A stretch of DNA of 10,599 bases from a virus (IMGVR_UViG_3300042908_000811:64001-74599), one strand, 5' to 3'; shown: positions 349 through 9,983, counted from the first letter of the stretch. The notes: a model not told the origin generated them from the letters alone. Numbers and translations are program-made.

Positions 349-356
349 TATAAATA
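349..356 (+). promoter_or_regulatory. T4-type late promoter TATAAATA
   Basis: Exact match 33 nt upstream of ATG 390; heads the plus-strand operon 390..2030. Confidence 0.75.
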
Positions 357-694: not shown

Positions 695-856
695 ATGGGA
701 AAAACTGCAACCAATCCGATTACTGGAGATAAAATCCAGACAAAAACAAGTTCAAAAAAATATTATGATAACTATGACTCAATTTTTAGAAAAGACAAGG
801 AATTAAAAAATAATGAAACTCCTACTAGCACTACTAATATTTCTTCCAATCAATAG
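695..856 (+). CDS. Small hypothetical protein (53 aa, MGKTATNPITGDKIQTKTSSKKYYDNYDSIFRK...)
   Basis: Manual translation; AAGGA RBS at 685-690; the N-x-ITGD-x-I-x-TK...Y-x-x-N-[YW]D-x-IF pattern resembles small proteins I recall from aquatic phages. Overlaps the start of 813. Confidence 0.65.
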   Translation: MGKTATNPITGDKIQTKTSSKKYYDNYDSIFRKDKELKNNETPTSTTNISSNQ

Positions 857-1226
857 TTATTCAGAAGAACAAATTAAAATTTTGAGAATTATAGATGCAG
901 ATACGATTTTAGTATCCGCTCCATTCATGCCCGCACCATTAAAAAAACAAATGCCAATGAGATTATCTAATGTAGATACTCCAAACATAAACCGTTGGGC
1001 AAATTGTGGTAACGAAGCAATACTTGGAGAAGAAGCAAAGAAATACGTTGAAAGTTTAATTAAGAAAAGTAAAAAGCAACAAGTAAAGATTGTTGGTTAC
1101 GATAAGTATGGTAGATGGTTGGGGCAAATTTATCTTGATGGTAAAAGTATATCAGATTCCTTAATAGAAAAGAAATTCGCTAGACCTTATTATGGCGGTA
1201 AAAAGCAATCTTGGTGCAATAAATGA
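813..1226 (+). CDS. SNase-like (thermonuclease family) nuclease with N-terminal signal peptide
   Basis: Motifs IIDADTI, RLSNVDTP, DKYGRWLG and GKSISDSLIEKKFARPY match the staphylococcal nuclease fold; MKLLLALLIFLPINSYS resembles a Sec signal peptide. Confidence 0.9.
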   Translation: MKLLLALLIFLPINSYSEEQIKILRIIDADTILVSAPFMPAPLKKQMPMRLSNVDTPNINRWANCGNEAILGEEAKKYVESLIKKSKKQQVKIVGYDKYGRWLGQIYLDGKSISDSLIEKKFARPYYGGKKQSWCNK

Positions 1227-1765
1227 AACAATTTAAAGAACATTTATCAGAAAATATAATTTCAGAAGCGTTCCAATATCATTTAGAAAATAACATCCCT
1301 TTCGACGATTGCGTTTTTAGGTATGGATCAGAAATGTATTTTGAATTTATTCATACTCTGAGAGAATATTATAATAAGAATTTACTCGAAGGCTATAACT
1401 ATTCTGAATACGAATTAGAGTTAATTAATTCCGATTTGGGCGAATTTGCGATGTATGAAAATGAAATGGTTCCGTTAGATTTAATTATTGAAGAAGAAAC
1501 TCCAGAATTAAATAAACCGAAAAGGGGCGGACCTAAGAAATTTTATGTTCACGTAAGAGACCCAAAGTCAGGGAATATTAAGAAGGTTGCTTTTGGTGAT
1601 ACTACTGGATTGGCTGTCAAGTACGATAACCCAGAAAGGAAAAAGGCATTTGCTGCAAGACATAATTGCTCAGATAAAACAGATAAGACTTCTCCTGGGT
1701 ATTGGGCGTGTAGGGTGAATAAGTATATGGCAAAAACGCCAGCAGGTAGAAGTGGATATTGGTGA
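1223..1765 (+). CDS. Hypothetical phage protein (180 aa): acidic N-half, basic C-terminal domain (KKFYVHV...KKVAFGD...FAARHNC...GYWACR)
   Basis: ATGA overlap with the nuclease gene; the C-terminal motif resembles a widespread unknown-function domain of aquatic phages; N-terminus MKQFKEHLSENIISEA. Confidence 0.85.
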   Translation: MKQFKEHLSENIISEAFQYHLENNIPFDDCVFRYGSEMYFEFIHTLREYYNKNLLEGYNYSEYELELINSDLGEFAMYENEMVPLDLIIEEETPELNKPKRGGPKKFYVHVRDPKSGNIKKVAFGDTTGLAVKYDNPERKKAFAARHNCSDKTDKTSPGYWACRVNKYMAKTPAGRSGYW

Positions 1766-1766
1766 T

Positions 1767-2030
1767 ATGCTACCATATATTGATGAAGAACAACCAGATC
1801 ACACTCTAAGAATATTTGATTCTACATTTGATTCCAACGATTTCTATTGGCACAAAGATAAAAAAGATAGGTTAATAACAGCAGTTTCTGGAGAAGATTG
1901 GGAATTACAAATTGATAATCAACTCCCAATAAAATTAGAAATAGATAAAGTATATCCTGTCCAAAAAGAAACTTGGCACAGAATAATTAAAGGCGAAGGA
2001 GATTTAATCTTAAAGATTAAAGAATACTAA
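1767..2030 (+). CDS. Small cupin-like beta-barrel protein (87 aa)
   Basis: Track start is GTG 1752; ATG 1767, 1 nt after the upstream stop, is more plausible. WHKD...WHRIIKG His pair and alternating beta pattern suggest a cupin fold (inference). Confidence 0.7.
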   Translation: MLPYIDEEQPDHTLRIFDSTFDSNDFYWHKDKKDRLITAVSGEDWELQIDNQLPIKLEIDKVYPVQKETWHRIIKGEGDLILKIKEY

Positions 2031-2347
2031 AGGTTTTTATAAAATTCAGATAGTTTTTGTAATTCTTCTTTTGAAGCGTTACTTTTAAATTTATTCGCCT
2101 TTAAAGAAATTACAATAATATTATCTATTTCATATCCCTTTGTAGAATCTATTCTATCTATAGAAATAGAATTATCTTCTGCTTTATTTCTATTAAATTT
2201 AATAGGAATTCCTAAAATAGGACATGTAATAGGATAGGTTAGATTATTAAGGTCTGTTATGGATAGGTTAAAAGGTATTCCGCGAGATTTAGCAGAACCT
2301 TTTAACCTATTATAGATAGTTTTTATTTCGGGAGTATATCCAATCAC
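2027..2347 (-). CDS. His-Me finger (HNH-like) endonuclease
   Basis: CPILG...SIDRIDSTKGYEIDNIIVISLKANKFK is the phage DRID-type beta-beta-alpha-Me motif; GTG start overlaps the upstream TGA (GTGA coupling). Confidence 0.8.
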   Translation of the reverse strand: MIGYTPEIKTIYNRLKGSAKSRGIPFNLSITDLNNLTYPITCPILGIPIKFNRNKAEDNSISIDRIDSTKGYEIDNIIVISLKANKFKSNASKEELQKLSEFYKNL

Positions 2348-2490
2348 TTTTTATCAGGTTTCTGATAATCTTCCAGTTTTTGATTGCTTCCCTGTCTTTG
2401 CGGTTTCTTATTAAGAAAAGAAGCTGTTCTGGCTATTTCTTCAGCCATCTTCTTTTTGTCTTCTTCGTTTGGTATATAACGATTCACCAT
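2344..2490 (-). CDS. Small charged hypothetical protein (48 aa, MVNRYIPNEEDKKKMAEEIART...)
   Basis: Manual translation; ATG 3 nt after the 2494 stop, and its TGA overlaps the HNH start. Not in the track. Confidence 0.6.
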   Translation of the reverse strand: MVNRYIPNEEDKKKMAEEIARTASFLNKKPQRQGSNQKLEDYQKPDKK

Positions 2491-2493
2491 AAT

Positions 2494-3393
2494 TTATTTC
2501 ACACCCATTTCTTTATTTCTTTGTTGTTGTATTTTTAAGAATTCAGCAGCAGCTTTAGGGTCTTTCGATAGTCTGGAATAAGTGTCAGCAACGCCGCTTT
2601 CTACTTCTTTAGAACCGCCAGAAAGTTTACCCAAAACGTCTCCAACTTTGTATATAGGGGAAACAGACGCTTCCCTTTTCTTAATCAATTCTTTTGCCTT
2701 TTCTAAATCGTCTGGCTGTTTAGTTCCAGGAAGAAGTTTTTGTTGTGTGGTAGGAAGTTTTGCTGGTGTGGTAGGAAGTTTTGCAGGCTTTGCTGCGTCT
2801 GAAGGTTGTTGAGACTTTTCGGCAGCTCTTTCTTTACCCAGACGTTTTAATTCTTCTGCCCTTCTCTTCAACCTTTCCCTTTCTTCTTCAGATTTCTTTA
2901 AATACTCTGCACCACCACCAGCCATAGCACCGCCAGTAACGCCTCCAACAACTCTACCTAAAGAACCGCCAAGTTTTCCGCCAACCCTACTACCAACAGT
3001 AGCGCCAACAACAGAAGGAATTGCTCGACCTACTCTTTCGCCGCTCTTAAATAATGTTGGGCTTCTCTGTTTTCTAATTTGTTGGGACTTTTCTATTTTC
3101 TTTTCTTCTTCCTCTGGAGATTTACCAGTAAAGAAACTTCTCGCTTTACCACCCCAACGTTTAAATCTCTCTTTACCTAAAAGACCTTGAGCGTATCCAG
3201 AAGAAACGTCTCCAAGATCTCTACTAAATTCTTTGGTAGAATATTCGTTTATACAAGTTTTAATTTCTAAAATTTCTTCTTCAGAAAAGATACCGTCTTC
3301 AATAAATTTTGCGTACTCTTCTTCGCTGAAGACGTCAAAAGTTTCTTGCAAATTTGTTCTTTGTTGTTCTCTTAATTGTTTGAAAGTTTTCAT
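2494..3393 (-). CDS. Putative internal head/virion cargo protein (299 aa) with glycine-zipper segment and P/K/T-rich region
   Basis: ATG 3393 preferred over GTG 3396 (GAGG upstream). N-terminus MKTFKQLRE; GxxxG-rich stretch; PAKLPTT repeat; in the late operon from the 4205-4212 promoter. Confidence 0.8.
   Translation of the reverse strand: MKTFKQLREQQRTNLQETFDVFSEEEYAKFIEDGIFSEEEILEIKTCINEYSTKEFSRDLGDVSSGYAQGLLGKERFKRWGGKARSFFTGKSPEEEEKKIEKSQQIRKQRSPTLFKSGERVGRAIPSVVGATVGSRVGGKLGGSLGRVVGGVTGGAMAGGGAEYLKKSEEERERLKRRAEELKRLGKERAAEKSQQPSDAAKPAKLPTTPAKLPTTQQKLLPGTKQPDDLEKAKELIKKREASVSPIYKVGDVLGKLSGGSKEVESGVADTYSRLSKDPKAAAEFLKIQQQRNKEMGVK
2745..2786. repeat. 21-bp tandem repeat x2 encoding PAKLPTT
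   Basis: gtgtggtaggaagttttgctg / gtgtggtaggaagttttgcag. Confidence 0.9.
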
Positions 3394-3403
3394 CACTAAA
3401 CCC

Positions 3404-4174
3404 TCAAACCCATTTTCCGCCGCCAGCAGAAGGATTCTTTTTCAATTCAGAAGAAGAAAGTCTTGGTGGGGTTGTTGGGGAAAGTTTTGGTTCTGGACCT
3501 ACTGGTTTTGCTGGTTCTCCACCCAATTTAGAAATTGCAGAACGTACTTGAGAACTAGACTGTCCGCCCGGAGAAATAGGTTTCTCCATTCTAGTTTGAG
3601 GCGTCAATACAGATTTTAATGTTCCCGTTTTTGACGCCATATCAGAAGTCGCTGATTTCATTCTTGCAGCGCTTGCCCTCAAATCGTCCATAGCTGGAGA
3701 AGAAGTTGGTAAGGACTTCTTAGCGGGTATTGGCGCTGGTTTTGGAATTGGTTTAATATTCGGTTTCGCCGCAGACGTTTTAGGGACCGGAGTTGGTTTC
3801 GCCACAGACGTTTTAGGGGCTGGAGTTGGTTTCGGGGTGGTTGTTGAAGGAACTGGCGCAGGTTTTGCTGCTGATCTTTCTTTACCCAATTGTTTTAATT
3901 CTTGCGCTCTTTGTTTTCTGGATTCTATAGAAGACTGCTGAGGTTTTGCTGCATCTGTTGTTGGTTCGCTTCTAACAGGAACGCTTGGTTTCTGAGATTT
4001 TAATGGTTTGTTCATTCCCGGAATCATTTGACCAACAGCAGCAACCTTTTGTTTTGCCTTTTGCCAGAATGGTTTAGTTCCCAACCAAGGGTCATTAACG
4101 TATTGATCATTTTTATCCGCTTCAGAAATAACTGATTCGTTGATTTCTTTTCTTAATTCTTTAAACGTTTTCAT
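3404..4174 (-). CDS. Putative internal head/virion cargo protein (256 aa), Pro/Lys/Ala/Ser-rich, largely disordered
   Basis: N-terminus MKTFKELRKEINESVISEA; AAGGT RBS; first gene after late promoter 4205-4212; shares RAxELKxLGKER with the downstream gene. Confidence 0.85.
   Translation of the reverse strand: MKTFKELRKEINESVISEADKNDQYVNDPWLGTKPFWQKAKQKVAAVGQMIPGMNKPLKSQKPSVPVRSEPTTDAAKPQQSSIESRKQRAQELKQLGKERSAAKPAPVPSTTTPKPTPAPKTSVAKPTPVPKTSAAKPNIKPIPKPAPIPAKKSLPTSSPAMDDLRASAARMKSATSDMASKTGTLKSVLTPQTRMEKPISPGGQSSSQVRSAISKLGGEPAKPVGPEPKLSPTTPPRLSSSELKKNPSAGGGKWV
3762..3834. repeat. 33-bp imperfect tandem repeat (~2.2 copies) encoding KPTP[AV]PKTS[VA]A
   Basis: ggtttcgccgcagacgttttagggaccggagtt / ggtttcgccacagacgttttaggggctggagtt / ggtttcg. 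Confidence 0.85.
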
Positions 4175-4204
4175 TCCAGAAATACCTTATTGTTTTGATT
4201 AAAG

Positions 4205-4212
4205 TATTTATA
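4205..4212 (-). promoter_or_regulatory. T4-type late promoter TATAAATA
   Basis: Exact match on minus, 30 nt upstream of ATG 4174. Confidence 0.8.
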
Positions 4213-4218
4213 AAAAAA

Positions 4219-4226
4219 TATAAATA
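4219..4226 (+). promoter_or_regulatory. T4-type late promoter TATAAATA
   Basis: Exact match, back-to-back with 4205-4212; upstream of ATG 4278. Confidence 0.8.
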
Positions 4227-4277
4227 AACCAAGAGGAACAAATTCCTTCTTGTTTATTATTTTTATTGGAGAAAACT

Positions 4278-4442
4278 ATGATTAATCTAAACCTTGAAAT
4301 TGCTGAAGTGAATGGCGTATTAACTGCACTAGGACAAATGCCCTACGCACAAGTAACAGAACTTGTTGAGAAAATTAAACAACAAGCAATCCCACAAGTT
4401 CAAGCACAACAACAAGAAGTTTCAGAAAATAACGAAGAGTAA
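4278..4442 (+). CDS. Small hypothetical protein (54 aa, MINLNLEIAEVNGVLTALGQMPYAQVTELVEKIKQQAIPQ...)
   Basis: Manual translation; GGAG RBS at 4268-4271; stop 3 nt before ATG 4446; the LG-x-x-PY-x-x-V-x-x-L-x-x-KI-x-x-Q pattern resembles small proteins I recall near phage tail genes. Missed by the track. Confidence 0.85.
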   Translation: MINLNLEIAEVNGVLTALGQMPYAQVTELVEKIKQQAIPQVQAQQQEVSENNEE

Positions 4443-4445
4443 GAA

Positions 4446-5378
4446 ATGACTACAAATTTAACAGCTATTTTAGGCGGTTCATCTGGTGGATCGTGGAAAT
4501 CACAGACATTTACTACTTCGGGAACATGGGTAAAACCAGAAGGCGTTGAGGTGGTAAAAGTCGTCATGGCTGGTGGCGGTGGGGGCGGCGGTTATTGGGA
4601 TTCTCCCGGTGGAAGTGGAGGAAACTCAATTTTCTATGCTCCAATACCTATTTATGCTTCTGGCGGTTTTGGTGCTCTAAGAGCAGATTTCTCTGCATGG
4701 AACGAAAATATTATAAATGGTTGGGGCGGTAATGGTGGTGGCGTATCTGGGGGAGAAGTTCTTTTGCTTCACACATCCGGAATTATTCTCGGTAGCCCTC
4801 CACAAGTAATAACAAACACAAATTCTGGTAAATCCTATACAACCAATAACGGAACGAGAGTTAAAACTCATGGAGGCGCAGGTATGCCGTCCGGAAATTC
4901 TATCTCTGGTGCTGGTGGAGCCGCTGGTTCAAGACGTGGTGGAGCAATTCCCGGTTTCGGTAATTCCGGCACATCTGGTATATGGAATATCAATGATGAT
5001 GATTCTGCGGAATACGGTCCCGGTGGTGGCGGTGGCGCTTCCTTTGGTGATGGAGGAATGGGTGTCGGAAGACCAGCACGAAACACAACACCAACACAAG
5101 CAACTCCCGGCATTTTTGGTGGTGGTGGCGGCGGTGGCGCTTATATAAGAGCTAACAGAACCACATTTAATTTCATCGGCGGTCCAGGTGGCGGTGGCGG
5201 AGAAATCGTAATTCGTGATGTTCCCGTAAAAGACGTGGCTTCCGTTTTTGTGGCTATAGGTGCCGGTGGTGCTCCTGCCACTCAATCAGGAACGTCAAAT
5301 AATACGTGGAGAGGTGGAATAACTACAGTTGCTCCTTCTGCTGGTGGTGCTGGTATTTGTCAAATTTTTTGGAGTTAA
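4446..5378 (+). CDS. Glycine-rich tail-fibre/adhesin-like protein (310 aa)
   Basis: FTTSGTWVKP...VVMAGGGGGG, GGGGGEIV...V-x-IGAGG and GAGICQIFW are the hallmarks of phage glycine-rich (polyglycine sandwich) tail domains; late promoter upstream. Confidence 0.85.
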   Translation: MTTNLTAILGGSSGGSWKSQTFTTSGTWVKPEGVEVVKVVMAGGGGGGGYWDSPGGSGGNSIFYAPIPIYASGGFGALRADFSAWNENIINGWGGNGGGVSGGEVLLLHTSGIILGSPPQVITNTNSGKSYTTNNGTRVKTHGGAGMPSGNSISGAGGAAGSRRGGAIPGFGNSGTSGIWNINDDDSAEYGPGGGGGASFGDGGMGVGRPARNTTPTQATPGIFGGGGGGGAYIRANRTTFNFIGGPGGGGGEIVIRDVPVKDVASVFVAIGAGGAPATQSGTSNNTWRGGITTVAPSAGGAGICQIFWS

Positions 5379-5380
5379 TT

Positions 5381-5704
5381 ATGTATAAATTTGCAACAAT
5401 TTCTAATGGAATCGTTACCAATATTATTGAATCTAATGATTATGAATCCATTAATATGCTAAAACAATATAATGAAGAAGTTATTATGGCAAACAATAGA
5501 GATGTAGAAATTGGATTTATTTGGGATGGTGATACCTTTTATAAAGACCCCCTTTTAGTAGAAAAGGAAAATAAAATCGTTGAAAAAAATTCAAATAAAA
5601 TGCTTGAGGAAAAACAAACTTTATACGATCAATTGTCAGTTAAAGAAAGTTTATCTGATGAAGAACAAGAAACTCTCGATCTATTAAAATTAGATTTGGA
5701 ATAA
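5381..5704 (+). CDS. Tail-fibre-associated chaperone-like protein (107 aa)
   Basis: True start is likely ATG 5381 (GGAG at 5371-5374), not track 5306. FATISNGIVTNII...IGFIWDGDTF motif; directly downstream of the Gly-rich gene. Confidence 0.7.
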   Translation: MYKFATISNGIVTNIIESNDYESINMLKQYNEEVIMANNRDVEIGFIWDGDTFYKDPLLVEKENKIVEKNSNKMLEEKQTLYDQLSVKESLSDEEQETLDLLKLDLE

Positions 5705-5734
5705 GAAAAAGGGGAGTTAACTCCCCTTTCTTTT
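5705..5734. terminator. Bidirectional intrinsic terminator
   Basis: Perfect palindrome aaaggggag-ttaa-ctccccttt (5708-5729), A-run before and T-run after, between convergent genes. Confidence 0.85.
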
Positions 5735-5827
5735 CCCTACGAATTCTCTACCGTCAATAGTTTTGGATTCCATTTCTGGAATAATTGACACATCACAGTG
5801 AATAAACATAATTACTTTTTTTTGTTT

Positions 5828-6625
5828 CTACAAAAAATTCGTATTAAAGACTTCAGAATTTATATCGATCCTGTCTAGGTTTGGAAGTTTTCCTGTTACA
5901 ATTTTCCAACTTTTATTAGGGAAATCTTTCTTCACGATTAATTGATTATCCATTTTATCGAAATTTTCATCTGACATTACAGTATTCATTTTAATCAAAT
6001 TGTATCTTTCTTCAGGATCTTTTCCTCTAAATCTTATATATTGTAGAGGATCGCCTTCATTTATTTCAATATTAAAGTCTAATATCTCAAACGTTGGTAC
6101 AATAGGTCTTTGCCAATTATAGATATTAAATGATCCAGGAATCAATCGCAAGGATGGATTATTGTGAAAATATGCCGGAAACGTTTCTATCCAAACATCT
6201 TCTACAGAGGAGAAGAATATCACATTAAGATTTTTATATTCTAATATAGGAATTCCATCATTACTCTTTGTTATTTTTTCAGCAACCTCTTCTGAATTTC
6301 GAAGTTCTTCAACGGAATTGATACGAATGGAATGTGGGGCATTAATACTCCACATTTGGTTTACATAAGAAGTAAATGCTGGACACTTTTTTATATCAGA
6401 ATTAGAATCTTGACAAACGCCTACATTTGACACATCAACATTAACAAAATCCCTTTTGCTTCTTCTATCTAAATCTTTAATATCGTCTATATTTACAACA
6501 TCACCCAATTCTCTACCACTAAGAAAATTGGATATATTCTTTAATACATTAGCGGGGATATCCTTCCCAACAAAAACGTCTTGTTTATTTGAGGCACAAT
6601 ACCCAAAATAATATATATTAATCAC
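5828..6625 (-). CDS. Hypothetical protein (265 aa); possible dUTPase-like beta fold, no catalytic motifs recognised
   Basis: ORF track; KKCPAF, IPGSFNIYNWQRP and INEGDPLQYIRF patterns resemble unknown-function proteins of aquatic T4-like phages. Confidence 0.75.
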   Translation of the reverse strand: MINIYYFGYCASNKQDVFVGKDIPANVLKNISNFLSGRELGDVVNIDDIKDLDRRSKRDFVNVDVSNVGVCQDSNSDIKKCPAFTSYVNQMWSINAPHSIRINSVEELRNSEEVAEKITKSNDGIPILEYKNLNVIFFSSVEDVWIETFPAYFHNNPSLRLIPGSFNIYNWQRPIVPTFEILDFNIEINEGDPLQYIRFRGKDPEERYNLIKMNTVMSDENFDKMDNQLIVKKDFPNKSWKIVTGKLPNLDRIDINSEVFNTNFL

Positions 6626-6641
6626 AATAAAAAACCAAATA

Positions 6642-6854
6642 TTAAATTACAGAAGCAGTTGCTGTATTACTCGTTAACTCTTCTATTACTGGTGGATTTG
6701 GATTATCTATAAATTCTTTTCCTGTCCAAAGTTTTCCAATAAATGACAAATTGTATGATGGAATAGAAATCATATCATCATACTGAACGTTTGCTGTCAA
6801 TTCTGAGATAGCGATAACAATGTTTTCGTTCGAAATTGTTGCGTAATAAAACAT
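6642..6854 (-). CDS. Tail-fibre-associated chaperone-like protein (70 aa), paralogue of 5381..5704
   Basis: GGAG (6864-6861) 6 nt before ATG 6854 favours this start over 6866; YATISNENIV...IGKLWTGKEF. Confidence 0.7.
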   Translation of the reverse strand: MFYYATISNENIVIAISELTANVQYDDMISIPSYNLSFIGKLWTGKEFIDNPNPPVIEELTSNTATASVI

Positions 6855-6865
6855 AATATTCTCCA

Positions 6866-7231
6866 TTAATAAAATTCAATAACTTGCCAAGAAAATGGAA
6901 TAAACTGGGCGAAGCTATTTCCCGTATAATAAAAAATTAAATTTCCTACCGTGAATTGAGTAGAAGAGTTTACGGAGATTAAAACTGGCACACAAACAGC
7001 ACCACCTGTAGAGGAAAAATAGCCGCCTGTATCGACGCGACCATACCCACCGTCAATCAAAATCATAATCTTACTTGTAGTCACAGAAGCCATAGTCACA
7101 TTATATGTAGCTGCTGCGGGATTTGATACATACCCTCTTTGTATACTCTTTACCACACTTGTTAACCCCGCTGTTGTTTGTACTGTTCCATCTGGATATT
7201 GAACTCCTGTGACAATTAGTGATGTTGCCAT
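6866..7231 (-). CDS. Short tail-fibre-like/virion accessory protein (121 aa)
   Basis: GVQYPDGTVQTTA and VKSIQRG motifs typical of phage tail-fibre repeat/tip modules; GGAG RBS; late promoter 7278-7285. Confidence 0.7.
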   Translation of the reverse strand: MATSLIVTGVQYPDGTVQTTAGLTSVVKSIQRGYVSNPAAATYNVTMASVTTSKIMILIDGGYGRVDTGGYFSSTGGAVCVPVLISVNSSTQFTVGNLIFYYTGNSFAQFIPFSWQVIEFY

Positions 7232-7277
7232 ATTTTATTTCTCTCCATATTCCAACAAATATATCTATATTATCTTA

Positions 7278-7285
7278 TATTTATA
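7278..7285 (-). promoter_or_regulatory. T4-type late promoter TATAAATA
   Basis: Exact match on minus, 46 nt upstream of ATG 7231. Confidence 0.75.
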
Positions 7286-7361
7286 TATTCGCGGTGCTTT
7301 CGCAAAACAGTGGTGTTTCCCGAAGGGAAATATAGAAATGGCGAACAATAACCGAAAAATT

Positions 7362-7556
7362 TTATTCAACAAGAAACTCTAGGAGGGATATACCATTATT
7401 CGATACGCGAATCACGGAATTATCTTCGAATATGAAGTCTTCTTCTGGTAATGAAGAAACAGGTCTTCCTTTATTCTCAAGGATAATGGATACGCTCTCT
7501 CCGTATGAAAAGGGTCTCGCTGAAATTGCTTTATATAATTGCTCTGCTTTACTCAT
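7362..7556 (-). CDS. Hypothetical protein (64 aa)
   Basis: ORF track; AGGA upstream; same orientation as neighbours; no recognisable motif. Confidence 0.6.
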   Translation of the reverse strand: MSKAEQLYKAISARPFSYGESVSIILENKGRPVSSLPEEDFIFEDNSVIRVSNNGISLLEFLVE

Positions 7557-7623
7557 TTTTGTCTTCTTCCTAAGGATAAATATCGCGGTCCGCGGGATGT
7601 AACGCGGGATGCTTGGTTACTGG

Positions 7624-7749
7624 TTAAAAAGAATCAAAGATTCCAAGAATCTTCGCGGGATTCTCTAAAATGCTTGGATATTCTACGGCGATGTATGTAG
7701 AACCTACAAGAACGATCGCGGCTATCAATACGAATCTAAAATGTGTCAT
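7624..7749 (-). CDS. Small single-pass membrane protein (41 aa, MTHFRFVLIAAIVLVGSTYIAVEYPSILENPAKILGIFDSF)
   Basis: Manual translation; GGAG RBS 8 nt upstream, right after the groES stop; hydrophobic helix. Not in the track. Confidence 0.65.
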   Translation of the reverse strand: MTHFRFVLIAAIVLVGSTYIAVEYPSILENPAKILGIFDSF

Positions 7750-7762
7750 AAATGATTCTCCG

Positions 7763-7999
7763 TTAATAAATGAAGATAACTTCGTCAATAGGTGTTATGT
7801 AGAGTTCTCCTTCAACCTTGGTTGCGGCATTCCAATTTAGGAATACTGTATCTTCTACATTTACTTCTGTAACATCGGGACCAATCGCTAATACTTTGCC
7901 TTTGTCTTGGTCTAGAGTTGATTTTAGGATTATGCCTGATTCTGTTTCTTTTGAACCTGGGATTCTTTCAATTAGAATATTATTTAGAGTTGGTTTCAT
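7763..7999 (-). CDS. groES: GroES/Cpn10-like co-chaperonin (78 aa)
   Basis: MKPT-LNNILIE, mobile loop KETESGIIL, KGKVLAIGP, V-x-V-x-D-x-V: the Cpn10 signature. No groEL in the window. Confidence 0.9.
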   Translation of the reverse strand: MKPTLNNILIERIPGSKETESGIILKSTLDQDKGKVLAIGPDVTEVNVEDTVFLNWNAATKVEGELYITPIDEVIFIY

Positions 8000-8089
8000 A
8001 TTGTATTATTTGCTTTTTTACTTATGTTAAATCAAGGGTTTAGAACCTACATTTTTCATTTTTTGGTATACCCTGTGGGGTACATTGGG

Positions 8090-8097
8090 TATTTATA
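8090..8097 (-). promoter_or_regulatory. T4-type late promoter TATAAATA upstream of groES
   Basis: Exact match on minus, 90 nt upstream of ATG 7999. Confidence 0.6.
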
Positions 8098-8098
8098 T

Positions 8099-8190
8099 TA
8101 AACGTTATTAGAGTTTAATTCTACTCTGTAGTCAATAGAAAGTAAACGTTATTAGAGTTTAATTCTACTCTGTAGTCAATAGAAAGTAAA
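8099..8190. repeat. Perfect 44-bp tandem duplication (plus partial third copy to ~8197)
   Basis: taaacgttattagagtttaattctactctgtagtcaatagaaag at 8099-8142 and 8143-8186, then taaaggttatt. Confidence 0.95.
8107..8179 (-). promoter_or_regulatory. Two sigma70-like promoters (TTGACT-N17-TCTAAT), one per repeat unit
   Basis: -35 at 8135-8130 and 8179-8174; -10 at 8112-8107 and 8156-8151; 17-nt spacers; point toward groES. Confidence 0.6.
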
Positions 8191-8192
8191 GG

Positions 8193-8324
8193 TTATTTTT
8201 CCATATTTATGAAATATTTCTTATTTTTTCTAGAGGGATCATCTTTAGGATTGAATTTTGGTTTTTTCTTCTTTTTAGATTCAATTGGATCGAAGTCTGA
8301 GAATTTAGATAGTTTCTTTTTCAT
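8193..8324 (-). CDS. Small highly basic protein (43 aa, MKKKLSKFSDFDPIESKKKKKPKFNPK...)
   Basis: Manual translation; ATGA overlap with the stop of 8321..8746. Not in the track. Confidence 0.6.
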   Translation of the reverse strand: MKKKLSKFSDFDPIESKKKKKPKFNPKDDPSRKNKKYFINMEK

Positions 8325-8746
8325 GGTAGAAGGTTTGGGAATGTTTCCTTTATTAGAGAGTACGTTAGACCTTTAGTTTTAAGATCTTTGTTGAATAGAT
8401 TAATAAGTGTTTGTGCTTCAGCAGGTTCCAAAGATTCTAGAAGTTGAAGAAGGAGATTGTTTCGTTTTTCAATTGTGAGAGAATCTGCTGTTTCGTTTCC
8501 AATTTGAAATAGATATAGACGTTTCAATTCGCAAGGAAGAGTAGAGAAAGAGATACCTGGAAGAGTATCTGGTTCTTTATATCCTTCTGGGAAAGAAGAA
8601 GGGTAGAATCTAATATCAGGGTGGAAAGCTAAAGAAAGGAATTGCTTCAGTAGAGGAGAAGCGTATTGTAGAAGAATAGATTGCTTCTCTTTCTTAGAAG
8701 GAGAATTAGAAATTTGGTTGAGGATTTCGTAAAAATTAATGTTCAT
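8321..8746 (-). CDS. Conserved T4-like phage hypothetical protein (141 aa), DUF6433-like
   Basis: EIL-x-x-IS...K-x-EK-x-x-IL...L...FHPDI...P-x-G...ELKRLY-x-F...R-x-x-L-x-x-QLLESL-x-P-x-EA-x-x-L...K-x-L pattern matches my recollection of DUF6433 proteins of T4-like phages; needs HMM confirmation. Confidence 0.75.
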   Translation of the reverse strand: MNINFYEILNQISNSPSKKEKQSILLQYASPLLKQFLSLAFHPDIRFYPSSFPEGYKEPDTLPGISFSTLPCELKRLYLFQIGNETADSLTIEKRNNLLLQLLESLEPAEAQTLINLFNKDLKTKGLTYSLIKETFPNLLP

Positions 8747-8756
8747 AATATGTAGT

Positions 8757-8787
8757 AGGAAAAAGAGGAGAGTTTGTTCTCTCCTCT
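8757..8787 (-). terminator. Intrinsic terminator after 8802..9506
   Basis: Stem agaggagag (8764-8772) / ctctcctct (8779-8787), 6-nt loop, followed on minus by TTTTCC. Confidence 0.8.
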
Positions 8788-8801
8788 AATGTTAAATGGA
8801 T

Positions 8802-9506
8802 TTATTGCTTGTGTGATAATACCAAATGCTTCATCGCAGAATGTAAATCTGTATGCTTACCCAATTGATCAAAACCTTTGTCTGGATGACCTTTCCAAGA
8901 TTTAATAATAGATCTACCACCATCTTCATGTCTAGAAGAAGTTACAGCACCAACAATTTTACCATTATGGGTAATATGATGTACTGAATCCGCGTCATAC
9001 CCTAATGGAGATTCTTCTGGATCAGCCTTTTCAATACCATATCCACCAGCAACAGGTTTTGCAGCAGGTTTAGGAGTAACTGGTTTAGAAACCGTTGTTT
9101 TTGTTGGTTTTGGAGCAGGAGCAGGTTTTGCTGGGGCTTCTCCAGAACGTTTTGCTAGATTTTCTTGGGCTGTTCTTGATACTCTACCCGCTTTATCTGT
9201 AGCTAATTGTTTAAGGGTTTCTTCAGAGGTATGGGGGTGTCCAGCAACAATAGATCTATAATAAGCAGTTTTATGTCCTGCCATTCTATTCATAGTATCA
9301 TGAAAAATTTCTGGATGTTTTTCATGATGTAAATGCTTTAGAGCATATCCAACAGTCAACATTGTTGGATCGTCATGTTTTTCTTTCGCTAGATGTTTAT
9401 CTAGAACTGCTTTAATTTCTTCATGAGAAGAATCTTCATGCGTTTCTTTATGTTTTGCGGCTTCAAAAAGCTCTAACTTTTCTAGTAGTTGTTTAAACGA
9501 AATCAT
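8802..9506 (-). CDS. Putative virion cargo protein (234 aa): His-rich, one LRV/HEAT-like repeat, P/K linker, small C-terminal domain
   Basis: N-terminus MISFKQLLEKLELFEA; 22 His; RSIVAGHPHTSEETLKQLATD...VSRTAQEN resembles a leucine-rich-repeat-variant unit; own late promoter and terminator. Confidence 0.8.
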   Translation of the reverse strand: MISFKQLLEKLELFEAAKHKETHEDSSHEEIKAVLDKHLAKEKHDDPTMLTVGYALKHLHHEKHPEIFHDTMNRMAGHKTAYYRSIVAGHPHTSEETLKQLATDKAGRVSRTAQENLAKRSGEAPAKPAPAPKPTKTTVSKPVTPKPAAKPVAGGYGIEKADPEESPLGYDADSVHHITHNGKIVGAVTSSRHEDGGRSIIKSWKGHPDKGFDQLGKHTDLHSAMKHLVLSHKQ

Positions 9507-9533: not shown

Positions 9534-9541
9534 TATTTATA
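9534..9541 (-). promoter_or_regulatory. T4-type late promoter TATAAATA
   Basis: Exact match on minus, 27 nt upstream of ATG 9506. Confidence 0.8.
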
Positions 9542-9590: not shown

Positions 9591-9983
9591 TTACCAAAGA
9601 ACTGGGTGACCCATTTGGCTCATACAAGAGTTAAACGAACGCTTATATGTTTCGTCCGCTTCATACATTCCATACCAAAGTCCAGTAATACCACCGATTG
9701 CACCGCCAGCTGCAGCACCAACACCAGCGGAAGCGGCTCCAGTAATGATTGCACCGGAAACAGCACCAATAGCAGCAGCGGCAGAAGCAGCAACGATTGC
9801 ATCTTCAACACCTTCTGTTGCATATCCAGCAGTTTTGCTGGCTAATTGCTGGCAATAAACAAAATCTTCATCGGCTTTTGCTAGATTTTTATCAGCCTTT
9901 TCGTTTAGAGTTGGTTTATATCCTGCTACAGTTGAACAACCCACAAGGGCAATTGATACAAATAACATAGTAATATATTTCAT
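9591..9983 (-). CDS. Glycine-zipper lipoprotein (130 aa)
   Basis: Lipobox LVG-C16; Ala/Gly zipper AAAAIGAVSGAIITGAASAGVGAAAGGAIGGITG flanked by YCQQLA and NSCMSQMG; strong AAGGAG RBS. Confidence 0.85.
   Translation of the reverse strand: MKYITMLFVSIALVGCSTVAGYKPTLNEKADKNLAKADEDFVYCQQLASKTAGYATEGVEDAIVAASAAAAIGAVSGAIITGAASAGVGAAAGGAIGGITGLWYGMYEADETYKRSFNSCMSQMGHPVLW

Follow-up and report, generated by a model that had tools for sequence, protein, structure and literature searches.

Putative T4-type capsid-targeting leaders on diverse late proteins of an uncultured freshwater phage

The final 10,599 bases of the 74,599-base IMG/VR virus record IMGVR_UViG_3300042908_000811, hereafter the window, encode four otherwise dissimilar proteins of 180, 299, 256 and 234 amino acids that share a common start, M-[KI]-x-F-K-[EQ], followed by [IL]-x-E at residues 15-18. 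As judged from sequence comparison, it is probable that this start, together with that of a fifth protein of 78 amino acids encoded elsewhere on the record and possibly that of a sixth, represents an N-terminal propeptide that corresponds to the capsid-targeting sequence (CTS) of the T4 internal proteins IPI, IPII and IPIII. By analogy with T4, the four window proteins are most likely packaged cargo of the phage head, and are probably injected. The CTS assignment is strongest for the 256-, 299-, 234- and 78-amino-acid proteins and weakest for the 180-amino-acid protein. All positions refer to the window unless marked "record" and are collected in Table 1, in which, as throughout the text, a slash indicates the proposed site of cleavage.

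The original prediction had pointed to four open reading frames (ORFs) starting at 1223, 3393, 4174 and 9506 as carriers of leaders resembling those of the T4 internal proteins. Translation of the ORFs recovered all four N-termini at these positions as described, with the proposed sites ending in E-A in three cases and in E-T in one, and the T4 record also translates to the leaders that had been quoted for comparison, MKTYQEFIAE/A for IPII and IPIII and MKTFKEFTSTTTPVSTITE/A for IPI. Five or six of the first seven residues match T4 in four of the leader ORFs, as seen for MKTFKEL of the 256-amino-acid protein against MKTFKEF of IPI, or for MKTYKEFIEN of the 78-amino-acid protein against MKTYQEFIAE of IPII and IPIII, while the start MISFKQL of the 234-amino-acid protein is more distant. 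The ISE/A sites correspond to ITE/A of IPI. For the 299-amino-acid protein, the length of which is counted from ATG although a GTG one codon upstream is open too, an alternative and earlier site, LRE/Q, is possible within the leader. All four members of the predicted set are real, but the set proved to be larger, including the 78-amino-acid ORF and possibly a 331-amino-acid ORF, both elsewhere on the record. Among the leaders, that of the 78-amino-acid protein comes nearest to T4 IPII and IPIII at its first ten positions, 8 of which agree with the IPIII leader, and it is retained in a homologue with 78% identity; the ORF lies inside a cluster of 23 transfer RNA (tRNA) genes, with tRNA-Arg and tRNA-Leu on either side. 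The 331-amino-acid ORF, which starts 28 nucleotides downstream of the late-promoter motif TATAAATA, has a more divergent putative leader and is the weaker candidate.

Of the 177 non-overlapping gene proxies of the record, 5 match the pattern M[KI]x[FY]K[EQ]. In 5000 column shuffles, in which each N-terminal position was permuted among the genes, the mean number of matches was 0.24 and the maximum 3, and the combination of this pattern with an [IL]xE[AST] site was observed five times against 0.006 in the column shuffles. The pattern had been composed after the ORFs were seen, and therefore the N-termini were scored also against MKTFKEF and MKTYQEF of T4 alone, which gave four ORFs with at least five of seven identities against 0.38 expected. 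As a positive control, the same pattern was applied to 53 kb of T4 including 94 gene proxies, from which it picked IPI, IPII and IPIII only. A site of the [IL]-x-E type at residues 7-22 is present in just 11 of the 177 gene proxies. The leaders are concentrated in the window, being carried by 4 of 21 gene proxies therein against 1 of 167 in the remainder of the record (Fisher p = 5e-4). In agreement with the original prediction, the other late ORFs of the window, those for the Gly-rich protein, a 121-amino-acid protein, the GroES-type protein, the SNase-like nuclease and the DUF6433 protein, are all without leader. The Ser or Thr at position 3 of the leader is encoded by AGT, TCN and ACN codons, which suggests selection on this position at the level of protein.

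A total of seven copies of TATAAATA were found in the window against 1.5 expected, a number reached by none of 200 shuffles. Since these seven are among the 15 copies in the entire 74.6-kb record, the window corresponds to the late region of the fragment. As had been predicted, all four leader genes are located in units headed by TATAAATA, two of them 27-30 nucleotides after a copy and two inside the units. Of the latter two, the gene for the 299-amino-acid protein follows that for the 256-amino-acid protein after an intergenic gap of 7 nucleotides, and the gene for the 180-amino-acid protein is the fourth in the unit starting from the copy at 349, in which the first ORF lies 33 nucleotides 3' of the motif and the genes are tightly spaced or overlapping, the leader gene itself overlapping the stop of the preceding SNase-like gene. 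From the positions of these motifs, the four leader genes are predicted to be expressed late from gp55-type promoters, the two without a copy of their own being co-transcribed in the same units. Six of the nine ORFs directly 3' of a TATAAATA, however, carry no leader, indicating that the leader is not a general trait of late genes.

The record represents part of the genome of an uncultured freshwater T4-like myovirus, and the window forms the late-gene end of this fragment. This placement is based on a pair of genes for CobS and a CobT-like 'peptidase', which is found in T4-like cyanophages and pelagiphages, on the 23 tRNA genes, on the use of TATAAATA, and on the 180-amino-acid protein family, which is common with phages HTVC008M, Melnitz and immuto. 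The completeness of the record was estimated by CheckV to be about 51%, and both head and tail modules are absent from the fragment. No near-identical phage record was detected by megablast of the window against phage records.

The leader was also identified in related phages, where it is attached to a variety of other proteins. In a set of 80 related loci with 1350 gene proxies, 75 leaders were counted under the relaxed definition and 40 under the strict definition, against 6.6 and 2.2, respectively, in shuffles. The proteins thus preceded include adenylate kinase, zeta-toxin-like P-loop kinases, a cytidylyltransferase-like protein that also carries DUF5824, a HAD phosphatase, and DUF6267, and for four of these leader-bearing families the Pfam domain starts at residue 16-25, the match of the HAD family being weak. 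Leaders of the kinase family differ in length between phages (8, 10 or 13 residues) but always end in [IL]xE/G right before the conserved GVYDPGIFKAFF. Such a variable leader with a fixed register between site and domain matches the expectation for a removable tag joined at a protease site. It is a possibility that a small set of enzymes of nucleotide metabolism is carried in the head of related phages. One contig, L106, represents a distant version of the late region with the Gly-rich gene, the GroES gene and the SNase-like gene, and contains four leader genes, two of which, for proteins of 443 and 670 amino acids, have no counterpart in the window and are each located behind their own TATAAATA. 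On the same contig, a homologue of the 299-amino-acid protein with 46% identity starts with MKTFKQLQE/D, in which MKTFKQL-E is kept and the following residues diverge, and a syntenic gene for 249 amino acids starts with MKTFKEFRGELGE/A and has a late promoter upstream. No description of CTS-like leaders in T4-like phages of the cyanophage or pelagiphage type was found in the literature searched, and internal proteins are unmentioned in Petrov 2010.

Homologues of the head proteins gp20, gp21, gp22 and gp23 are present in two metagenomic relatives, G002 (116 kb) and G003 (100 kb), and in HTVC008M, all three of which carry the family of the 180-amino-acid protein; the core head proteins of these relatives are 30-44% identical to those of T4. 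The LTE/A site of T4 gp23 is kept at the aligned position, as LTE/A58 in G002, LNE/T64 in G003 and LGE/I52 in HTVC008M, and the gp22 homologues contain 10-14 [IL]xE sites, like the degraded scaffold of T4. With the gp23 site kept and gp22 rich in [IL]xE, the specificity of the protease appears, as far as the sites tell, to be conserved in the clade. The gene immediately preceding gp21 in G002 and G003 encodes a leader protein that is small and basic, starting with MKTFQQIRE/A in the former and MLSFEEYLSQDLDE/A in the latter.

The virions of a cultured relative, the T4-like cyanophage S-SM1, provide an experimental but indirect line of evidence. In purified S-SM1 virions, the putative cytidylyltransferase T4-GC190 and the proteins T4-GC1453, 1454 and 1455 were detected by mass spectrometry (Sullivan 2010, text and Table S8, PMC3037559), in a report that does not discuss leader or cleavage. 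The four genes are grouped between gp41 and gp61. GC190 starts with MKKFSAFLNE/A and GC1455 with MLSFKELQE/K, and the same leaders are present in phage Syn9 on gp184 and gp186. Flavobacterium phage immuto and Methylophilales phage Melnitz are further cultured relatives in which leaders of this kind occur. The detection of proteins with these leaders indicates that enzyme-like leader-bearing proteins are physically in the virions of a cultured relative.

These observations altogether support the original prediction that a T4-type capsid-targeting leader is carried by diverse late proteins: the likeness to T4, the non-random occurrence, the late context, the unrelated and mostly basic cargo, the retention of the leader in diverged homologues, the gp20-gp23 set of the relatives and the proteomics of S-SM1 all point to the same direction. 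The internal proteins of T-even phages are highly diverse, with the CTS as their sole common part (PMC3012670), and the first 10 residues of IPIII are enough for packaging (PMC9026906), and therefore the leader ORFs would add members to a known kind; under the CTS assignment, the set is a group of new instances of the known T4 mechanism. By analogy with T4, the leader genes would be transcribed late from the TATAAATA promoters, and the leader of 13-18 residues would bind the scaffolding core during prohead assembly, by which the protein becomes enclosed in the head. A prohead protease of the gp21 type would then release the leader by cutting behind its terminal [IL]-x-E, and the mature proteins would remain in the head together with DNA and exit at infection. 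Core binding, cleavage, head residence and ejection are all inferred here from the T4 model.

Table 1. Leader-bearing ORFs, late-promoter motifs and other features of the window, the record and related loci
Feature	Position	Strand	Description
180-amino-acid ORF	1223-1765	+	Leader residues 1-15 (nucleotides 1223-1267), MKQFKEHLSENIISE/A; site ISE/A
299-amino-acid ORF	2494-3393	-	Leader residues 1-17 (nucleotides 3343-3393), MKTFKQLREQQRTNLQE/T; site LQE/T
256-amino-acid ORF	3404-4174	-	Leader residues 1-18 (nucleotides 4121-4174), MKTFKELRKEINESVISE/A; site ISE/A
234-amino-acid ORF	8802-9506	-	Leader residues 1-15 (nucleotides 9462-9506), MISFKQLLEKLELFE/A; site LFE/A
78-amino-acid ORF (fifth leader ORF)	record 54894-55130 (L002:4894-5130)	+	MKTYKEFIENIFE/S; site IFE/S; outside the window
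331-amino-acid ORF (weaker sixth candidate)	record 37567-38562 (L001:7567-8562)	+	MLRFIQYLEE/K; no family match
TATAAATA	349..356	+	Exact match; heads unit 390-605, 695-856, 813-1226 (SNase-like), 1223-1765
TATAAATA	4205..4212	-	Serves the pair of 256- and 299-amino-acid genes; 30 nucleotides to the ATG of the former
TATAAATA	4219-4226	+	Back to back with the copy at 4205..4212; heads the unit of the Gly-rich gene
TATAAATA	9534..9541	-	Serves the 234-amino-acid gene; 27 nucleotides to the ATG
Other leader-bearing loci (examples)	L012:5362-5934, L021:6880-7572, L051:1164-3293, L049:7351-8607		Marine and freshwater T4-like relatives
SNase-family nuclease	813-1226	+	PF00565, E = 4e-12
GroES-type co-chaperonin and nearby DUF6433 genes	7763-7999 and 8321-8746	-	GroES-type: phrog_3188
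130-amino-acid ORF	9591-9983	-	Lipoprotein-type signal (...LVGC)
tRNA 3'-end lookalike	L002:4800-4850		T-arm, acceptor stem and CCA
IS605-type OrfB/TnpB gene	L106:3140-4360		Insertion that separates the first leader gene from the Gly-rich gene
AmoC/PmoC gene, full	L007:1876-2655		PF04896, E = 1e-122; RNase H-like gene adjoins

The mature parts of the leader proteins, 65-282 residues in length, show no detectable homology to each other except for Pro/Ala/Lys (PAKP) low-complexity stretches and one short motif common to the neighbouring 256- and 299-amino-acid proteins. The isoelectric point (pI) of the mature part is 9.2-10.5 in four of the five proteins. For the 234-, 256- and 299-amino-acid proteins, databases of billions of proteins yielded only one to three relatives each, in which the leader is retained. 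Nothing usable was obtained from Pfam or PHROG for the 256-, 234- and 78-amino-acid proteins, and no homologue of the 256- or 234-amino-acid protein was detected by tblastn against 50,697 phage records. The mature parts gave no Pfam or PHROG match to families of internal proteins; they are linked to the T4 cargo by the leader alone and not as homologues.

The descriptions of cargo in the original prediction, a glycine-zipper protein, a disordered basic protein and a His-rich repeat protein, hold as rough leads and nothing firmer. The mature part of the 256-amino-acid protein is rich in Pro, Ala and Lys (37 Pro and 41 Lys plus Arg in 238 residues), with a pI of 10.5, and is predicted to be disordered, its Atlas model giving a predicted local distance difference test (pLDDT) score of 0.46; one identical copy exists, in the near-identical strain L007. 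This protein may just neutralise DNA charge. In the 299-amino-acid protein (mature pI 9.5), the leader is followed by an acidic stretch, a glycine-zipper segment, a coiled-coil-like K/E/R stretch and a basic tail. It matches weakly to tape-measure and glycine-zipper families, the Atlas search was of low confidence with weak glycine-zipper rows, and its homologues are two only. The mature part of the 234-amino-acid protein (pI 9.2, 22 His) is composed, according to a low-confidence AlphaFold model (pLDDT 64), of a HEAT/ARM-like helical part, a disordered PAKP linker and a small C-terminal domain of beta strands plus helix. An LRV repeat match stayed under the Pfam cut-off, and no fold match to the model was found in PDB at E <= 0.001, the weak rows of ARM-repeat and GNAT being leads only. 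The three homologues of this protein, 82-97% identical, all keep the leader. Beyond the leader, neither the 256- nor the 234-amino-acid protein contains [IL]xE. The glycine-zipper and helical-repeat proteins are candidates for early host-directed functions.

Of the cargo candidates, the 180-amino-acid protein is the weakest. With more than 1400 homologues in its family, it is not lineage-specific; its conserved C-terminal domain matches phrog_7595 and is found also in podoviruses and archaeal viruses. R146, H147, C149, D154 and C163 are invariant. In the family alignment, F is located at position 4 in 67 of 93 sequences, and 61 of 93 have an [IL]xE whose last residue falls within 8-22. The model of this protein gave no fold match in PDB at E <= 0.001.

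Several observations weigh against the assignment of the leaders as CTS. About one-third of the homologues of the 180-amino-acid protein lack [IL]xE at residues 8-22; in the AlphaFold model of this protein (pLDDT 87), a helix of residues 4-22 spans the ISE/A site and runs on into the fold; and its mature part is non-basic (pI 6.1) with five more [IL]xE sites, an excess and not a depletion. When four proteins are pooled, their mature parts contain 2 [IL]xE sites where 6.2 would be expected, which is a weak depletion (P = 0.04). The genes for gp21, gp22 and gp23 are not on the record, no match to Peptidase_S77 being found in its 74.6 kb; since the fragment is half complete and without a head module, this result is not evidence of absence, and the protease is inferred from the relatives only. 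In the cultured relative HTVC008M, the block gp126-134 shows weak or no leaders, and therefore the tag is not universal in the clade and HTVC008M is a poor model. In the S-SM1 block, a clear leader is missing from two of the four proteins detected in virions, and the four belong to families other than the four of the window. In addition, the codons of the leader are biased to A/T-ending synonyms (TTT 90% against 69% and AAA 92% against 66% in gene bodies), and part of the conservation of the leader could therefore serve translation initiation.

Some of these observations agree with an explanation that we consider unlikely, in which the common N-terminus marks proteins associated with the virion or its assembly and is not a cleaved, head-internal CTS, but a short amphipathic helix that docks to another intermediate or chaperone, or that is retained. 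The leader helix that passes without a break into the folded domain in the model of the 180-amino-acid family and the leaderless virion proteins of S-SM1 both favour such a helix, and the S-SM1 proteomics shows presence in the virion but neither location nor cleavage. The leader is, however, a near match to the proven head-targeting peptide of T4 and terminates in a gp21-type site; the conserved domain of the kinase family begins precisely at the site even though the leader varies in length; a leader protein adjoins gp21 in two relatives; and in the model of the 234-amino-acid protein, pLDDT falls below 50 at residues 1-10 and 12-26, including the proposed leader. A docking or uncleaved helix would concern chiefly the 180-amino-acid protein.

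The codon bias described above is also expected if the motif is a cassette for expression or recombination, that is, an A/T-rich 5' coding stretch that aids translation of late mRNA and offers short homology for the swapping of genes, and the difference of cargo genes between strains, as in the slot of the 234-amino-acid gene that holds an AmoC/PmoC gene in L007, is in line with it. As a full account we regard this as improbable. The motif is missing from the majority of the ORFs that directly follow a TATAAATA, two leader genes are operon-internal without a promoter of their own, and the Ser or Thr of position 3 is conserved although its codons come from unrelated families; moreover, a cassette leaves unexplained the [IL]xE[AGST] site and its register with the starts of conserved domains. 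The two roles are mutually compatible, and the CTS region of T-even phages probably serves both as protein signal and as cassette. Chance, AT-rich composition or paralogues retaining nothing but their N-termini might be suspected from the frequency of MK- starts in AT-rich phages and from the short internal motif of the 256- and 299-amino-acid neighbours, but chance and simple paralogy are effectively excluded by the composition-keeping column shuffles, by the lack of detectable homology between mature parts beyond low-complexity stretches, and by the presence of the leader on clearly different Pfam families in relatives as well as on the T4 internal proteins.

As putative packaged cargo with a predicted cleavable CTS, the leader proteins resemble T4 IPI, IPII and IPIII in several respects: a leader of 10-19 residues, MKT[FY][KQ]EF..., in which [IL]-x-E is followed by A, S or T; late TATAAATA promoters; mature proteins that are mostly small-to-medium, basic and mutually dissimilar; and a gene content that varies between close relatives, the slots differing in L007 and L106. 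The location of the 78-amino-acid ORF within the tRNA cluster is also like T4 ipI, which adjoins tRNA genes. They differ from the T4 proteins in that the mature parts are dissimilar in sequence to IPI, IPII and IPIII, that the cargo is larger, and that one member, the 180-amino-acid protein, is from a widespread conserved family; the host and the phage lineage are distant from those of T-even phages. The 'non-structural' virion proteins of S-SM1 are similar in that the 180-amino-acid family lies beside homologues of the gp41-gp61 block in HTVC008M and adjoins leader-bearing genes in G002 and G003, but the three lineage-specific proteins of the window have no homologues there, and the gene for the 180-amino-acid protein is located, unlike the S-SM1 block, in a late operon behind the SNase-like gene.

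The head propeptides of the giant phages phiKZ, 201phi2-1 and SPN3US are long and are not known to share a conserved tag of 10-19 residues, and their cleavage motif is described differently. In these phages, many unrelated proteins are reported to enter the head and to be cut behind a short x-E motif by a protease related to T4 gp21 (PMC5694885, PMC7411985). The likeness to the leader proteins thus lies in unrelated proteins, head loading and gp21-type trimming, which in our case is a reading of the sequence, while the phage under study is T4-like and of ordinary size.

A number of additional features were observed in the neighbourhood of the leader genes and in the related loci. The SNase-family nuclease, encoded directly 5' of the gene for the 180-amino-acid protein and also in L106, has a signal-peptide-like N-terminus. 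The gene for the GroES-type co-chaperonin is located about 90 nucleotides behind a TATAAATA; in T4, the GroES-type role is filled by gp31. The DUF6433 protein encoded nearby looks like the N-terminal domain of an ATP-dependent DNA ligase. The 130-amino-acid ORF contains an Ala/Gly-rich, glycine-zipper-like segment in addition to its lipoprotein-type signal, with weak Pfam rows (RTX N-terminal, Tim17), and may encode a membrane protein involved in lysis or in superinfection exclusion. In L106, an IS605-type OrfB/TnpB gene is situated at the back-to-back late promoters. The mature domain of the 78-amino-acid protein recurs as a C-terminal module of two longer proteins, P0147 and P0149, which have repeated [VM]AE/GS linkers and a polyprotein-like look; the contigs of P0149 and of P0126, which also shares this domain, are too short for gene context. 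Just upstream of the 78-amino-acid ORF, a sequence resembling the 3' end of a tRNA was found about 900 bases from the last called tRNA. No 5' half for it was called by ARAGORN or Rfam, and it is a candidate for a tRNA remnant or an interrupted tRNA gene.

The near-identical strain L007, an 8967-bp contig with 92-97% DNA identity on shared stretches, carries the AmoC/PmoC gene in replacement of the gene for the 234-amino-acid protein. The lineage may belong, or be close, to the freshwater phages with a methane or ammonia monooxygenase subunit C, which would hint at a methanotroph or nitrifier as the host.

For the window itself, the gain is modest: four 'hypothetical proteins', three of which are nearly without relatives, would receive the label of late, head-packaged cargo, through a mechanism that is textbook T4 biology. 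Phage proteins injected with DNA act ahead of phage gene expression, as known for IPI* of T4, which blocks a host restriction enzyme, and T4-like phages are among the most abundant phages in lakes and oceans. A wider view, which we hold tentatively and think rather doubtful at present, is that the T4 CTS is maintained nearly letter for letter across the T4 superfamily, in coliphages as well as in marine and freshwater phages with head proteins only 30-44% identical, tagging a large, fast-changing repertoire that includes enzymes, and that the strain-specific 234-, 256- and 299-amino-acid proteins are injected effectors of the first minutes of infection, for anti-defence or host takeover. If the CTS is conserved in this way, the injected proteome of uncultured T4-like phages would become readable from sequence alone, candidate first-strike effectors could be listed without culture of the phage, and the leader would be usable to load foreign proteins into such phages.

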